Positions 2,026-21,879 of a stretch of DNA of 64,000 nt are shown in pieces. The notes under the pieces are model-generated. The model made no database searches, was not told where the DNA came from, and was given only the letters and a program-made list of their open reading frames with translations. Positions within the stretch are counted from its first letter, which is position 1, and each line of letters begins with the position of its first letter. The stretch comes from a virus: UHGV virus genome UHGV-0370399; one strand, given 5' to 3'. Position numbers and translations under genes: made by a program.

Positions 2026-2428
2026 CCTCTGAAACTAAAAATGTAATACCACATAAGTGTCTGTAACGACTATCATACTCGAATATCTTAAACAGATATT
2101 TACCATCATGATAAACCTGTTGCACTTCACCTTCTGCAACAATCTCGCCTGTAATAAAATTTTTTAGTTTATACACATTACCAACTTTAGGTACTGTTTT
2201 CATCTCAGGCTCTTTTAGTGCTACACTTATTTTTGCATCACCGAGTAAATGAGAACTCTCAAAAGCTACGTGTTTCATATAAGCTTCTGAGCATTCCCAG
2301 ATAAAACAATGTACAAGAACCTTAGCAGCATGTCTTGAACAGTTTAACTTATCACAAATTTCTGTGTACATCTCATCTTTAGTCGAGTTGTCAAGCATTA
2401 CTCTTTGCACTATCTCTTTTACTTTCAT
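1964..2428 (-). CDS. hypothetical protein
   Basis: 154-aa ORF in minus-strand array. Confidence 0.5.
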   Translation of the reverse strand: MKVKEIVQRVMLDNSTKDEMYTEICDKLNCSRHAAKVLVHCFIWECSEAYMKHVAFESSHLLGDAKISVALKEPEMKTVPKVGNVYKLKNFITGEIVAEGEVQQVYHDGKYLFKIFEYDSRYRHLCGITFLVSEDDLIKNNSNKFAVPEYQVLR

Positions 2429-2846
2429 AAGCTCTCCGAATAACCCTATTAAACATCTCTAAAGTCAGCTTTCCAGATTCTAAATGTGGCATAACAAGCT
2501 TTAAAGCTTTTTCAACATCATGCACAACATCTATTATACCTTCTGCATAGGCTTCTACAAGGATATCTTTTACATTTTGTGATTTACCTTTTTGTGGTAT
2601 CACTAGACGCATATCAAACTCATTTGCTTGAGGATGGTTCTTACCACGCCAGAAACCGTCCTTATCAAAGCTTATAAAGTTATCCTCATTAAAATTAATA
2701 CCACAAACCTTAAACTTATCTAAAACTATGCAGTTGAGAGGGTAATCATCACTTGCATCATTCATTCCAAGAAACTTAACAGTAGCTATATACCTCTGTG
2801 TCTTTGAATCTACAATGTCAAGTTCTTTACCTATGTACTCTTTCAT
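2391..2846 (-). CDS. hypothetical protein
   Basis: 151-aa ORF in minus-strand array. Confidence 0.5.
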   Translation of the reverse strand: MKEYIGKELDIVDSKTQRYIATVKFLGMNDASDDYPLNCIVLDKFKVCGINFNEDNFISFDKDGFWRGKNHPQANEFDMRLVIPQKGKSQNVKDILVEAYAEGIIDVVHDVEKALKLVMPHLESGKLTLEMFNRVIRRAYESKRDSAKSNA

Positions 2847-2849
2847 CTC

Positions 2850-3122
2850 TTAAATCCTATCAATTTGAAACTCTTCAGGTAACTCAGCCACCACTTTTAA
2901 ATAGTAAGCATCAGAGATTGTATGCTTTGTCTCATAGCTACCATTCTTAATCCAGTTATAATTTTCTGGTATTCCATCATCATTACAAAAACCTGAGTAC
3001 ATAATTGCTCTGTGGATTATATTTTTATTAGAGTATGCAACATCTACAATATAGTATGTTTTTTCTTTCCAACCACCTTCAGGTTTACAAATACCTGAGA
3101 TACCCTCTAATTCTGGTGTCAT
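2850..3122 (-). CDS. hypothetical protein
   Basis: 90-aa ORF tightly packed with neighbours. Confidence 0.5.
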   Translation of the reverse strand: MTPELEGISGICKPEGGWKEKTYYIVDVAYSNKNIIHRAIMYSGFCNDDGIPENYNWIKNGSYETKHTISDAYYLKVVAELPEEFQIDRI

Positions 3123-3175
3123 TTCGCTACCTTCTAAGTTTCTACAAAGGGGCTATCAAGTAACCCCTCAAGTTA

Positions 3176-3400
3176 CTACTCAGACTTTTCAGTCTTCTTA
3201 TCGGATTTCTTACTAGTCTTCTTCTCAGCTTTCTGTTCAGGCTCCTTCTCAGAAGTTGCCTTAATAACCATATCAAGAAGCTCTGATAAGTCACTCTTCA
3301 GCAAAGTAACAGGCTGCTCGTTGTAGAAGTTTTTGTCAAGATAAACTTTGAACTCTTCTATAGAAGGAAATCCAAAAATTGGTACAGGTGTCTTAATCAT
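3176..3400 (-). CDS. hypothetical protein with Lys/Glu-rich C-terminus
   Basis: 74-aa ORF; C-terminal KKTSKKSDKKTEKSE tail. Confidence 0.45.
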   Translation of the reverse strand: MIKTPVPIFGFPSIEEFKVYLDKNFYNEQPVTLLKSDLSELLDMVIKATSEKEPEQKAEKKTSKKSDKKTEKSE

Positions 3401-3476
3401 TACTTAGTCTCTCCATAGGCATCTTTTAAGATTGCCTTGTTAATCATTTCAGCGATTGCAAAACGAACACATACAG

Positions 3477-4010
3477 CTATAATTGTAGGTTGCATTCTTT
3501 ACTTACCTCTTCAAGTTTAACTTCAGAGTCCTTAAGTCGTTTCTTATGAACTCTGAACCTCATTAGTGAGATGATGATACCAGCTAAAGGAACAACATAC
3601 AAGTACCAGACATCATGCAACTTTGCAGTAATCTGTGTAATGGTCAAGTCTTGAGCTATGTAGCTGATTGCTGATACAGCTAGTAATGTTGCTAAGAAGA
3701 ACACTAGTATCATAACAATATTTAGACAACCTCTGGCATGATATTCATGCTTAATGCACTTATTCTTCTCTTCAACAACCCTGTTGTAGTCATTTGTAAA
3801 GTCTCTGTAGAAAGCTTTCAAGTATTCTTGAGTGTAGCCTTCAAAGCAACCTGTACCGTACCAATAGTCACCACCAAAGTGTGCTATGATACCGGTATCC
3901 CCATTTGGTTTGGTTACTCTAAGAGAAGTATGATGACCAGTCTTCTGGTAATCTATTTTGTATCTTTCTTCGTAAATCATTTCCCAAACCCTCTCAATCG
4001 TTTGTTCCAC
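3477..4010 (-). CDS. membrane protein (soluble N-terminal domain, two C-terminal hydrophobic helices)
   Basis: 177-aa ORF; hydrophobic stretches LNIVMILVFFLATLLAVSAISYI and YLYVVPLAGIIISL. Confidence 0.5.
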   Translation of the reverse strand: MEQTIERVWEMIYEERYKIDYQKTGHHTSLRVTKPNGDTGIIAHFGGDYWYGTGCFEGYTQEYLKAFYRDFTNDYNRVVEEKNKCIKHEYHARGCLNIVMILVFFLATLLAVSAISYIAQDLTITQITAKLHDVWYLYVVPLAGIIISLMRFRVHKKRLKDSEVKLEEVSKECNLQL

Positions 4011-4195
4011 TCAAGGTCAACAAGCCTTTGCAGGACTTTCCCTCTAGGTGTTACACCTTTTAAATCTGCATCGTAGCAACGGTAAAAGTCACCTTCAGCG
4101 TGTTTACCATAGCATTTTCTGATATTCTGGCTCCTACGATACTGCTCTAACAGGGACAGTTTGTAGTAGTCTTCAACTGTAGTTAGTTTTTTCAT
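3977..4195 (-). CDS. hypothetical protein
   Basis: 72-aa ORF in array. Confidence 0.4.
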   Translation of the reverse strand: MKKLTTVEDYYKLSLLEQYRRSQNIRKCYGKHAEGDFYRCYDADLKGVTPRGKVLQRLVDLEWNKRLRGFGK

Positions 4196-4278
4196 TCTTT
4201 TACCATGTCTCTTATCTAGAAACTAAAAAGGGAACTACCTCTCGATAGCTCCCATCATAATCAGTGTTGTATACTCGG

Positions 4279-4860
4279 TCAAGAGTATTTTTTAGGCAGC
4301 AATGCACTGCGCTTGTTACTCTCTTCACTCAATAGTGCAATGAAATCATCACTTTTACCTTTCCACGGGCTGAATGAAGGGATATGTTCGCGGATAGCCT
4401 CAATCACTGTTTTAAGTGCTGTGTTCTTCATCCACCAATCAGAATCTGCTGATGCTACCACGTAGTATCCACCGTCATCAGTTAAAATTGGCTCTGAAAT
4501 ACATGGTGAAATCAAAGTGGTGATGATTGAACCGTTGTTCATGTAGTATGTGCGCTTCATAACCTTTTCAAGAAGCTTGTGAAGGTCACCAAACAGTGTT
4601 ACAAGTTCTTTGTGGTCGATGTCTTTTTCGAGGCTTGCTCGATACTTCAATAGTGCAGCATCAACCTCTCTGTCATTGAATTTGAAGTACTGGACTTCAT
4701 CAACAAGGCAAACACTGATATTGTTCACATTCATAGTCAACTTACAAACTTTTGCAGGAGAGTTGATGCTTGGTTGAAAAAGTGCAATACACCCTTCAAT
4801 ATTTCCAAAATGTTGTACCAGTGTTACTTGTGGAGTAATATTCTGTTGCTCTTCGGACAT
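4279..4860 (-). CDS. hypothetical protein
   Basis: 193-aa ORF; stop/start coupled with next gene. Confidence 0.5.
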   Translation of the reverse strand: MSEEQQNITPQVTLVQHFGNIEGCIALFQPSINSPAKVCKLTMNVNNISVCLVDEVQYFKFNDREVDAALLKYRASLEKDIDHKELVTLFGDLHKLLEKVMKRTYYMNNGSIITTLISPCISEPILTDDGGYYVVASADSDWWMKNTALKTVIEAIREHIPSFSPWKGKSDDFIALLSEESNKRSALLPKKYS

Positions 4861-6283: not shown

Positions 6284-6311
6284 GAAAATAAAAAAGGCTC
6301 CCGAAGGAGCC
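6284..6311 (-). terminator. Rho-independent terminator (GGCTCC-CGAA-GGAGCC hairpin followed by a U-run on the minus strand)
   Basis: Hairpin plus A-run on plus strand (AAAATAAAAAAGGCTCCCGAAGGAGCC) immediately downstream of the minus-strand endolysin gene. Confidence 0.65.
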
Positions 6312-6321
6312 TATGAAGATA

Positions 6322-6786
6322 TTACTTTGGATATACACTGTCAAGATAAATGTCAGCTTCCATTCTACGTCTGTTTTTCAGGCCGTTTGAGGTGACCTTC
6401 TTGCCTTTGACTGTAACCTTGTTCCACCATTGCATAGCTTCTGCACAACCGACCTTATTACCATCGTTGTGGCGCTTGATAAATGTAGAGTCCTGCATAG
6501 CTGTGATGCCAATGTTGTATGTTTCACTTACAAGTGCATCAAACTCGTTCTGAGAAGTTGGAACCTTGATGGCTTTGTTCACTGCTGCAACGAATTTTTC
6601 AACATCTGCAAGAAGATACTGTTCAGCTTGTTCAGCGGTAATCTTCATACCCATCTTAACAGGCTTCCCACCAATACGGATTGTCCCATACCCAATTGTG
6701 GGGATTCCAGCAGAATCTTCGTAAGCCTCCAGCTTAAGACCTTCAAAGAACTTAATAGCTTCTAAACCTTTCTGTGAGAGTTGCAT
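6322..6786 (-). CDS. endolysin, phage lysozyme (glycoside hydrolase family 24, lambda R / T4 e type)
   Basis: N-terminal motif GLKLEAYEDSAGIPTIGYGT typical of GH24 muramidases; 154 aa. Confidence 0.85.
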   Translation of the reverse strand: MQLSQKGLEAIKFFEGLKLEAYEDSAGIPTIGYGTIRIGGKPVKMGMKITAEQAEQYLLADVEKFVAAVNKAIKVPTSQNEFDALVSETYNIGITAMQDSTFIKRHNDGNKVGCAEAMQWWNKVTVKGKKVTSNGLKNRRRMEADIYLDSVYPK

Positions 6787-7919
6787 TATGCCCCTCCTAC
6801 TGGGTTAACTGTAACTGTTGCTGCATTAGACGTTACAGAGCCACCTGCACCAGTAACTACACAGGTGTAGCTTCCTGCATCAGCAGCGGTTGCACCTTCT
6901 TTGGTGTAAGTTGCACCAGTTGCATCGAGGATGTCTTCCTCACCTTTCTTCCACTGGTAACCTGTTGCACCTGTTGCCACAACATTCAGCGTTAAGGTCT
7001 CACCTTCAGTGATTTCTTGATTGGTTGGCTGTTGAGTGATTACCGGAAGTGCATTCACAGTTACTACAGCAGCATTAGATTCCACTGCACCACCTGCACC
7101 TGTTACAACGCAAGTGTATGAACCAGCATCTGCTGGCAGCGCACCGGACTTGCTATAGGTAGCATCTGTAGCTGAAGTGATGTCAGAGCCATCTTTCTTC
7201 CACTGATAACCTGTTGCACCTGTTGCAGCCACTACCAAGTTGATGTCTCCACCCTCATTGATAGTCTGACCAGAAGGTTGCTGTGTAATCACAGGCAGTG
7301 CGTTGACAGTAACTGTTGCCGCATCTGAGGTAACACTTGTCCCAGCCTCTCCAGACACAACACAAGTATAGGAACCAGCATCAGAAGGTACTACAGACTG
7401 TTTTGTGTAGGTTGCAGATGTGGCACTAGTGATATCCTCACCACCCTTTTTCCATTGATATCCAGTGGCATTAGTTGCAATAACACTTAGGGTAAGTGTG
7501 CCACCTTCATTTACTGTTTGGTTGGTTGGTTGCTGAGTGATTGATGGTGGCTTGATAGCATCCTTCAGCTTAGCATTCAGCATTGAGAATGGTTTAACTC
7601 TTGCCAGCCATTCACAATAAACTGTATCAACGTCTTTACCATTGATAATTGCATATTGTAAGTCCATGAAGAAGTCAGAAGTTCTCATTTGAGCACCAAC
7701 GCTGTAAAGCAACTCATCACTAAATGGGACTTTGTAGTCTGGTTTGTAGTCAAACTTCTCAACTTCTGCAATATCAGCTTCAGGCCAATATGAACTATAA
7801 GTAAGTGGTAAAATAGCCTCTTGATATGTTCTAAAATCATATCTCTTACCAGCCTTTACATTTGCAACGAAGCCCTTCACAAACTCTTTGAAGTCTGGGT
7901 AAGTCTTTGCTTTAATCAT
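6786..7919 (-). CDS. Ig-like domain protein: N-terminal about 120-aa domain plus three tandem Ig-like repeats of about 85 aa
   Basis: Three repeats each carrying QQP(T/S)xQT(V/I)NEGG...ATGYQWKK...DAGSYTCVV(S/T)G...VTVN (I-set-like G-x-Y-x-C signature); N-domain is paralogous to the adjacent 123-aa protein. Confidence 0.7.
   Translation of the reverse strand: MIKAKTYPDFKEFVKGFVANVKAGKRYDFRTYQEAILPLTYSSYWPEADIAEVEKFDYKPDYKVPFSDELLYSVGAQMRTSDFFMDLQYAIINGKDVDTVYCEWLARVKPFSMLNAKLKDAIKPPSITQQPTNQTVNEGGTLTLSVIATNATGYQWKKGGEDITSATSATYTKQSVVPSDAGSYTCVVSGEAGTSVTSDAATVTVNALPVITQQPSGQTINEGGDINLVVAATGATGYQWKKDGSDITSATDATYSKSGALPADAGSYTCVVTGAGGAVESNAAVVTVNALPVITQQPTNQEITEGETLTLNVVATGATGYQWKKGEEDILDATGATYTKEGATAADAGSYTCVVTGAGGSVTSNAATVTVNPVGGA
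6789..7541 (-). repeat. Three tandem about 255-bp coding repeats (Ig-like domains) inside the 6786-7919 gene
   Basis: Repeated DNA blocks around 6930-7060, 7190-7320 and 7441-7550 read directly. Confidence 0.75.
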
Positions 7920-8287
7920 TTCTTTTTAGCCTCTAAATGTGCGTTTAGTCTAAAATAACCTTTGTGATGCGGAGATACATCACCAACAACAATACCTTTA
8001 GCCTTATAACCTTTACCAATTACATACTGGATATCCATAAGGAATCTTCCAAGTCCAACGATATGGAACATTGGATATAATAGATTCTCAGAGTCTGGAA
8101 TATTGATTTCAGGTTTGTAGGTGCGTTGTTCGCTTGTTGGTGTAATATCTTCTTCAGGCCATTTACTGAGTCTCCATGTCAAAGGTGTTGGGATAACATC
8201 ATTAAGGTTGTACCTTTCACCATTTTGCACGGAATTGATATAGGATTGTAGGAAGCAATAAAAGTCTTTTGCACTCTTAGCTTTCAT
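7916..8287 (-). CDS. hypothetical protein, paralog of the N-terminal domain of the Ig-like protein
   Basis: Shared pattern M-x-KAK...DF...G-x-RY...WPE-DI...YKP...LLY...F-MD-QY-I..G between the two proteins. Confidence 0.55.
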   Translation of the reverse strand: MKAKSAKDFYCFLQSYINSVQNGERYNLNDVIPTPLTWRLSKWPEEDITPTSEQRTYKPEINIPDSENLLYPMFHIVGLGRFLMDIQYVIGKGYKAKGIVVGDVSPHHKGYFRLNAHLEAKKK

Positions 8288-8310: not shown

Positions 8311-8326
8311 AGGGGCATCAGCCCCT
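8311..8326 (-). terminator. Possible hairpin terminator (AGGGGC-ATCA-GCCCCT) between minus-strand genes
   Basis: Perfect 6-bp stem; weak U-run, so low confidence. Confidence 0.3.
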
Positions 8327-20772: not shown

Positions 20773-21879
20773 ATGTTGACTAATTCTGAAAAAAGCAGAT
20801 TTTTCCTTGCTGACCTGACTGGTGAAGTCCAGTCTATCCCAAATACTTATGGGTATATTTCCAACTTAGGTCTGTTCCGTTCAGCACCAATCACCCAAAC
20901 TACTTTCCTTATGGACTTGACTGATTGGGATGTTAGCTTGCTTGATGCGGTAGACCGTGATAGCCGTAAAGCAGAGACTAGCGCACCTGAGCGTGTTCGT
21001 CAAATCAGCTTCCCAATGATGTACTTCAAAGAAGTTGAAAGCATCACTCCTGATGAAATTCAGGGTGTACGTCAGCCAGGCACTGCAAACGAACTGACTA
21101 CTGAAGCTGTAGTACGTGCTAAGAAGCTGATGAAGATTCGTACCAAGTTCGATATTACTCGTGAGTTCCTGTTTATGCAAGCTCTGAAGGGTAAAGTTGT
21201 TGATGCTCGTGGTACTCTGTACGCTGACCTGTACAAGCAGTTCGACGTTGAGAAGAAGACTATTTACTTCGACCTTGACAATCCTAATGCTGATATCGAC
21301 GCTTCTATTGAAGAACTGCGTATGCACATGGAAGATGAAGCTAAGACTGGCACTGTAATCAACGGTGAAGAGATTCACGTAGTTGTTGACCGTGTATTCT
21401 TCAGCAAACTGGTTAAGCATCCTAAGATTCGTGACGCTTATCTTGCACAGCAGACTCCACTGGCTTGGCAACAGATTACTGGTTCTCTGAGAACTGGTGG
21501 TGCTGACGGCGTTCAGGCTCATATGAATACTTTCTACTACGGTGGTGTTAAGTTTGTCCAGTACAACGGTAAGTTCAAAGACAAGCGTGGTAAGGTTCAC
21601 ACTCTGGTTAGCATTGACAGCGTAGCAGACACTGTTGGTGTTGGTCATGCTTTCCCTAACGTAGCTATGCTGGGTGAAGCTAACAACATCTTCGAAGTTG
21701 CATATGGTCCATGTCCTAAGATGGGTTACGCAAATACACTTGGTCAGGAACTGTACGTATTCGAATACGAAAAAGACCGTGACGAAGGTATTGACTTCGA
21801 AGCTCACTCTTACATGCTGCCATACTGTACTCGTCCTCAGTTGCTGGTAGATGTTCGCGCTGACGCTAAAGGCGAATGA
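20773..21879 (+). CDS. major capsid protein (by position and size)
   Basis: 368-aa ORF following protease/scaffold; strong RBS; no motif checkable by eye. Confidence 0.6.
   Translation: MLTNSEKSRFFLADLTGEVQSIPNTYGYISNLGLFRSAPITQTTFLMDLTDWDVSLLDAVDRDSRKAETSAPERVRQISFPMMYFKEVESITPDEIQGVRQPGTANELTTEAVVRAKKLMKIRTKFDITREFLFMQALKGKVVDARGTLYADLYKQFDVEKKTIYFDLDNPNADIDASIEELRMHMEDEAKTGTVINGEEIHVVVDRVFFSKLVKHPKIRDAYLAQQTPLAWQQITGSLRTGGADGVQAHMNTFYYGGVKFVQYNGKFKDKRGKVHTLVSIDSVADTVGVGHAFPNVAMLGEANNIFEVAYGPCPKMGYANTLGQELYVFEYEKDRDEGIDFEAHSYMLPYCTRPQLLVDVRADAKGE

Follow-up and report, generated by a model that had tools for sequence, protein, structure and literature searches.

What is the function of a phage protein with three tandem immunoglobulin (Ig)-like domains that is encoded directly upstream of an endolysin, and what is the role of the smaller protein, related to its N-terminal domain, whose gene precedes it? 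This question is raised by a locus in a viral DNA of 64,000 nucleotides (UHGV-0370399; the whole stretch is called the window below). From the location of the gene beside that of the endolysin, an initial annotation suggested an accessory protein that binds the cell wall or a surface. The explanation developed here, which we consider very probable as a whole, is that the larger protein is a capsid decoration protein of the Hex-Dec type, that the smaller one is a duplicate of its capsid-binding domain (CapBD) with a role away from the virion that is assigned with low confidence, and that the adjacent endolysin gene reflects gene order.

Layout of the three-gene unit

The DNA of this region is 94-97% identical to that of more than 190 Felix O1-like phages, including S.Kent 1-2-1, LF82P2 and wV8, and judged by its sequence the window is a Felixounavirus. 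The three open reading frames of the initial annotation were found as described, all on the minus strand. The first encodes the CapBD-only paralog of 123 amino acids (7916-8287, from the ORF call) and the second the protein of 377 amino acids (6786-7919, assigned by PDB sequence search, Pfam and phrog_3995); the third encodes a GH24 (T4-type) endolysin of 154 amino acids (6322-6786; Pfam PF00959, E 1.6e-40; phrog_7). The genes overlap, with the paralog stop and the Hex-Dec start sharing ATGA and the Hex-Dec stop and the endolysin start sharing TAATG. Directly 5' of the paralog ATG lies a conserved TAAGGA ribosome-binding site, preceded at 8312-8325 (minus strand) by a conserved GC hairpin (GGGGC-loop-GCCCC, then TTT) that corresponds to terminator t38 in Felix O1. 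On the other side an intrinsic terminator at 6285-6312 (minus strand; AGGCTCCTTCGGGAGCCT then TTTTTATTTT) ends the three genes, and a terminator is annotated at the matching position of wV8. In that phage the counterparts are gp42, gp41 (labelled 'tail protein') and gp40 (endolysin), and terminators have been annotated at either end of them. As a whole, the locus forms a unit of three genes in a Felix O1-like myophage, located between hairpins and arranged in the order paralog, Hex-Dec, endolysin.

A scan for sigma-70 promoters gave none between the upstream hairpin and the start of the paralog gene. When the sequence upstream of the paralog was taken as a late-promoter motif, it matched 17 times in the window versus 11.6 expected matches; this is no enrichment, as 5 of 100 shuffled sequences also reached 17. 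A programmed -1 frameshift that would fuse the paralog to Hex-Dec was considered as well. The run GCT AAA AAG AAA TGA occurs here, and a -1 shift would lead into the reading frame of Hex-Dec, but the slippery run is missing in Mooglevirus, Suspvirus and other loci, and the frameshift was therefore rejected as a conserved feature.

The surroundings had been described as a block of early-looking genes, which is correct for only part of them. RT-PCR data on Felix O1 show that the lysin gene ORF35 and most neighbours peak at 25 min, whereas ORF36 and ORF37, the counterparts of the 377-aa gene and the paralog, peak late (60 min), together with tail and baseplate genes.

Identity of the 377-aa protein

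A PDB sequence search with the 377-aa protein (predicted mass 39.6 kDa) gave full-length matches, starting at residue 1, to 9NCF_S (E 6.4e-295) and 9C2D_S (E 1.4e-169). The first is Hex-Dec of phage Bas63, which is present as a monomer in hexamer centres and only in the hexamers at the facet edges (PMC12609058); the second is gp20 of phage Sf14, which was found in virions by mass spectrometry (PMC11821841). The protein also matches phrog_3995 with an E-value of 1e-207. Its CapBD (residues 1-118; 7566-7919, minus strand) is near-identical to the CapBDs of these two chains. In Sf14 gp20, salt bridges connect Arg79 and Arg107 with Asp221 of the major capsid protein (MCP) (PMC11821841), and the window protein has Arg at these two positions as well. 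The partner protein is also conserved: the MCP gene of the window, located about 13 kb from the Hex-Dec gene and on the opposite strand (20773-21879, plus strand; 9NCF_A, E 3e-247; 9C2D_A, E 5e-234), encodes a protein that is 98-99% identical to the Bas63 MCP, with Asp at position 221 in the alignment.

In both cryo-EM maps the orthologs occupy the centres of the pentamer-proximal hexamers, and both papers report no density on the remaining hexamers (PMC12609058, PMC11821841). Mass spectrometry of Felix O1 virions identified the ortholog gp36 with 44% peptide coverage. The remark of the initial annotation that Ig-like domains of phages usually decorate virion proteins agrees with these orthologs, which were located on the capsid by cryo-EM and in virions by mass spectrometry. 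All sequence features tested for the family of Hex-Dec and Sf14 gp20 were found in the 377-aa protein, which on this sequence basis is an ortholog of these head decoration proteins. A single monomer would insert its 118-residue CapBD into each of the 60 pentamer-proximal hexamers of the T=9 capsid. The Hex-Dec protein itself is already known, its structure having been solved in near-identical phages. In the literature searched, no further paper beyond the cryo-EM work used the name Hex-Dec in the sense of a decoration protein, and Ounavirinae and a Hoc-like decoration protein occurred together only in the Bas63 and Sf14 cryo-EM papers.

The three Ig-like repeats of the initial annotation were recognized by Pfam, where Ig_3 (E 1.6e-32), Ig_2 (2e-24) and I-set (7.8e-24) each matched in three stretches. 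Pfam and repeat alignment place the domains, all on the minus strand, at residues 127-210 (7290-7541), 211-293 (7041-7289) and 294-375 (6795-7040), and the G-x-Y-x-C signature noted earlier is found in them as GSYTC at residues 182, 266 and 349. Pairwise identities between the repeats are 67-70% at the protein level and 62-66% at the DNA level. The statement that the repetition extends to the DNA is only weakly true: a repeat search detected blocks of 37-41 nt at a spacing of 249-252 nt, but Tandem Repeats Finder did not detect the array in the 377-aa gene because the DNA of the copies is only 62-66% identical.

The number of Ig-like domains varies in the family. Among 25 related viral contigs and the window, Hex-Dec is about 210, 294, 377 or 461 amino acids long. 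These lengths correspond to between one and four tandem Ig-like domains, C-terminal to a CapBD that stays constant, and the window protein has three; the Bas63 cryo-EM paper agrees that the number varies (PMC12609058). Ig-like domain 3 of the window corresponds to Ig4 of the four-domain Bas63 protein (alignment of residues 195-376 with 278-459). The CapBD is more constrained than the first Ig-like domain, with dN/dS values of 0.044 and 0.12, respectively. Both structural papers propose Hoc-like roles in adhesion, aggregation and environment sensing (PMC12609058, PMC11821841). If the comparison with T4 Hoc holds, the three acidic Ig-like domains may project outward in a row as a flexible fibre, and these arms could adhere weakly to glycans, to the surface of cells or to other particles. 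The binding of carbohydrates or surfaces mentioned in the initial annotation would likewise follow from the analogy with Hoc. The arms may be dispensable in the laboratory and useful on some hosts; in the PhageMaP screen, the essentiality score of Bas63 g124 (bas63_0124, the Hex-Dec gene) was higher on E. coli S17-1 than on the other three hosts tested.

That the 377-aa protein acts together with the endolysin as a cell-wall or surface-binding accessory is highly improbable. Its gene is indeed directly upstream of the GH24 endolysin gene and translationally coupled to it, and the linkage is kept across the Ounavirinae. However, the N-terminal domain is the solved capsid-binding domain, and since the orthologs were solved on MCP hexamers this domain is to be seen as capsid-binding rather than cell-wall-binding. 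Moreover, orthologs are part of the virion (Sf14 gp20, Felix O1 gp36), and in Felix O1 the lysin gene ORF35 has its expression maximum in the middle period, ahead of the late maximum of ORF36. The order of a CapBD-Ig gene followed by a lysin gene is kept in the Ounavirinae and related phages examined, which indicates shared ancestry of gene order and is not evidence for a shared function.

The designation as tail protein or major tail protein, which most database records carry, has still less probability, and for close relatives the capsid maps 9NCF and 9C2D have disproved it. It can be traced to the label 'tail protein' of phrog_3995, to weaker matches with 'major tail protein' PHROGs and to many GenBank records, and Felix O1 gp36 was named 'major tail protein', but tail PHROG matches other than phrog_3995 are mainly in the Ig-like region, the best stretches beginning at residues 96-144, and the PDB matches of the N-terminal domain are capsid-bound chains only. 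The Bas63 authors call the tail annotation wrong, and the ortholog was located on capsid hexamers in two cryo-EM studies (PMC12609058, PMC11821841). Homology to a tail tube, a sheath or other tail components outside the promiscuous Ig-like domains was looked for and not found. For annotation purposes, the Ig-like protein should be labelled as a Hoc-like capsid hexamer decoration protein instead of a tail protein or lysis accessory. Relatives carry between one and four exchangeable Ig-like modules, whereas the capsid anchor is fixed. Hex-Dec can therefore be regarded as a natural scaffold for display, which makes it useful for phage display and for studies of phage adhesion to mucus and cell surfaces.

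Origin and possible role of the CapBD-only paralog

The claim that the 123-aa gene duplicates the N-terminal domain agrees with the BLASTP result, in which 37% of the aligned positions (35/95; E 1e-16) are identical between its product and residues 2-94 of the 377-aa protein. The paralog belongs to phrog_4463 (E 2e-79), a family that cross-matches with phrog_3995; a Pfam search with the 123-aa protein gave no match. The solved CapBD chains are matched with E-values of 2.5e-11 (9NCF_S) and 1.1e-10, and 24 invariant columns are common to paralogs and Hex-Dec CapBDs. An AlphaFold2 model based on a 27-sequence alignment retrieved only 9ncf_S and 9c2d_S in Foldseek (probability 1.0, TM 0.58-0.62); its pLDDT of 64 is moderate and the model was therefore used only for resemblance to solved folds, a single-sequence prediction being poor (pLDDT 52). 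Over its full length, the paralog is thus homologous to the Hex-Dec CapBD in sequence and fold.

The arginines that anchor Hex-Dec to the capsid are not retained: the Felixounavirus, Mooglevirus and Suspvirus paralogs examined have Gly at position 79 and His or Gln at position 107. The loss of both makes even transient binding of the paralog at hexamer centres uncertain. The residues in place of the two arginines are Gly78 and His/Gln107. A distant paralog (P0098) has Gly at position 79 and Arg at the equivalent of position 107. Among distant CapBD-Ig proteins, Arg79 is not universal either.

Orthologs of the paralog (14.2 kDa) are Felix O1 gp37, VpaE1 ORF40c and bas63_0125. An intact gene is present in 235 of 253 Ounavirinae records (Felixounavirus, Mooglevirus and Suspvirus), and in 25 loci it is located between a gene for a 196-aa protein and Hex-Dec, with the same overlapping junction. 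The same four-gene order was found on an 87-kb metagenomic contig, where the paralog and the CapBD are 44% and 58% identical to those of the window. The length of 122-124 amino acids, the ribosome-binding site and the overlap junction are shared by most recovered homologs and were found in every locus checked. With a dN/dS of about 0.12, from pairs with dS up to about 1.2, the paralog is clearly under purifying selection, although roughly 2.7 times looser than the CapBD (0.044). Net charge and pI of paralog and CapBD showed no consistent trend in the family. When 1.84 billion proteins were searched with a deep profile, only 12 cluster representatives were returned; the family is therefore narrow, and no functional clue came from other contexts.

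In Kolesnikvirus (Erwinia phage Fifi318) and in Yersinia phage P778 there is no CapBD-only gene between the homolog of the 196-aa gene and the CapBD-Ig gene, which indicates that the paralog originated from a partial tandem duplication in a single branch of the subfamily. The duplicated segment was the 5' part that codes for the CapBD, and the duplication took place in the ancestor of Felixounavirus, Mooglevirus and Suspvirus. The gene has since decayed in SP116-like phages by loss of the start codon and an internal deletion of roughly 230 nt, which shows that it is not needed for assembly. Neither the paralog nor the duplication is mentioned in the Bas63 and Sf14 cryo-EM papers (PMC12609058, PMC11821841). 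It is a small but real detail, and the sole undescribed part of the locus.

A capsid-related role is suggested by the fold of the paralog, by its late expression along with Hex-Dec and by the strict translational coupling of the two genes. Nevertheless, the paralog is probably not stably incorporated into the virion. The list of Felix O1 virion proteins, which has a cut-off of 25% coverage, does not contain it, and, by the wording of the VpaE1 paper, ORF40c is not among the 22 virion proteins of that phage; such absence in mass spectrometry is weak negative evidence. With low confidence, we propose that it may act off the mature virion, in head assembly or in the loading of Hex-Dec, and it could transiently occupy MCP hexamer centres or be a partner of the Hex-Dec CapBD. 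A more far-reaching reading, possible but doubtful, is that the paralog is a head-assembly or decoration factor, for example an armless cap, that controls where and when Hex-Dec is loaded. Such a cap might occupy procapsid hexamer centres for a short time, or be present on the 20 three-fold hexamers at an occupancy that is hidden by icosahedral averaging. If this reading is correct, partial gene duplication has created a two-protein decoration system. Whether the paralog is in contact with the capsid bears on how decoration comes to be restricted to 60 of 80 hexamers.

A function unrelated to the capsid, either host-directed or in anti-defence and with the fold merely retained, is another possible but doubtful reading. 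It would agree with the faster evolution of the paralog, the loss of the anchoring residues, the net charge that is not conserved in the family and the dispensability in SP116-like phages. The strict conservation of its position and of the coupling to Hex-Dec, even at 44% identity, argues against such a function, as do the late timing in Felix O1 and the lack of a match to any other Pfam family.

It is rather unlikely that the paralog is a second, armless decoration protein of the mature capsid, which could cap the 20 true three-fold hexamers or compete with Hex-Dec and thereby set the density of Ig arms. The fold and family are those of the CapBD, expression is late and coupled to Hex-Dec, and the three-fold hexamers are left empty by Hex-Dec; a monomer on a three-fold axis would presumably be smeared by icosahedral averaging. 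Against this stand the lack of density on these other hexamers in both cryo-EM papers, the absence from the Felix O1 virion proteome and, by the wording of its paper, from that of VpaE1, and the replacement of Arg79 and Arg107. Finally, a non-functional leftover of the duplication would fit the loss or decay of the gene in about 19 of the 253 records, but is very improbable in view of the dN/dS maintained over such divergent pairs and the conserved length, ribosome-binding site and overlap junction.

Comparison with known decoration proteins

The closest known systems are Bas63 Hex-Dec and Sf14 gp20, which share with the window protein a near-identical CapBD with Arg79 and Arg107 and a series of tandem Ig-like domains. 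Their MCP partner is 98-99% identical to that of the window and retains Asp221. In Bas63 the genes have the same genomic position, with bas63_0125, bas63_0124 and bas63_0123 encoding paralog, Hex-Dec and endolysin. The Bas63 protein differs in having four Ig-like domains instead of three, and the window protein has no equivalent of Bas63 Ig3; Sf14 gp20 also has three Ig-like domains, at lower identity.

[quoted passage not shown] It is also non-essential, with a probable function in environment sensing or adhesion (PMC12609058, PMC11821841). However, the capsid-binding domain of Hoc is C-terminal, so that the domain order of Hex-Dec is reversed and the 377-aa protein does not have the arrangement of the Hoc family. 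The CapBD of Hex-Dec is larger than that of Hoc, topologically distinct and pseudo-two-fold symmetric (PMC12609058). There is no sequence similarity between T4 Hoc and Hex-Dec beyond the Ig-like domains, and the 'Hoc-like' PHROG matches cover residues 121-371. Unlike Hoc, Hex-Dec is bound to a subset of the hexamers only, in a single orientation (PMC11821841).

Phage T5 pb10 (5LXK, 8ZVI) has the same domain order as Hex-Dec, and its Ig-like domain matches Ig-like domain 3 of the window protein (E 3.3e-11), but it carries a single Ig-like domain and no sequence similarity to the CapBD was detected. Distant CapBDs that are 26-38% identical to that of the window occur in the Kolesnikvirus, Yersinia P778 and Pectobacterium phage CapBD-Ig proteins (P0100-P0104). 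Here the CapBD is fused to a single Ig-like or Big_2-like domain, so that the type of display domain differs, and Arg79 is not conserved in all of them. In the two loci examined, those of Fifi318 (P0100 type) and P778, the CapBD-Ig gene is directly upstream of the endolysin gene as in the window, whereas there is no gene for a CapBD-only paralog.

Upstream hairpin and the junction of the two genes

[quoted passage not shown] A canonical promoter does not fit in such a short gap. The Felix O1 orthologs of Hex-Dec and the paralog, ORF36 and ORF37, are transcribed late.

The 3' end of the paralog is an A-rich run (GCT AAA AAG AAA TGA, 7916-7930, minus strand) that is similar to the -1 slippery site of dnaX, and its -1 frame is the frame of Hex-Dec. 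Slippage of the ribosome at this run would fuse the paralog to Hex-Dec. Sequence comparison showed that the run is not conserved in Mooglevirus, Suspvirus and the other loci compared, so it is probably a chance occurrence in the window, and the frameshift was set aside.

Decayed and divergent relatives

Only a degraded trace of the paralog is left in Salmonella phage SP116 (2306-2497 of locus L002): it has lost its start codon and carries frameshifts and an internal deletion of ~230 nt. Hex-Dec of this phage is a protein of 210 aa with one Ig-like domain. An intact paralog is missing in about 19 of the 253 Ounavirinae records. The 87-kb metagenome contig L035 is a far more divergent Ounavirinae-like phage. 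Its four-gene block (2368-4726) has the same order as the window, with a 195-aa gene, a 122-aa paralog, a 298-aa Hex-Dec and the lysin; identity to the window is 44% for the paralog and 58% for CapBD.

Neighboring genes

The endolysin gene (6322-6786, minus strand) is the ortholog of Bas63 g123, which was more dispensable in several defense-system strains in the PhageMaP gene-fitness screen and was tested as a candidate trigger of the Ec67 retron. On the plus strand, the gene for a 471-aa protein (9999-11414) with DUF2828 and DUF7788 and a weak vWA match, annotated in wV8 as 'RNA-binding protein', immediately precedes a cluster of 13 tRNA genes (11580-14628).

Ig-like repeats outside phages

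Among non-phage PDB entries, the top match to the Ig-like repeats of Hex-Dec (6795-7541, minus strand) is GhpA (9FLP; E 1.1e-73, 12 stretches), a 5898-aa grappling-hook protein from the predatory bacterium Aureispira. This similarity points to an Ig-like repeat family that may be common to bacteria and phages.
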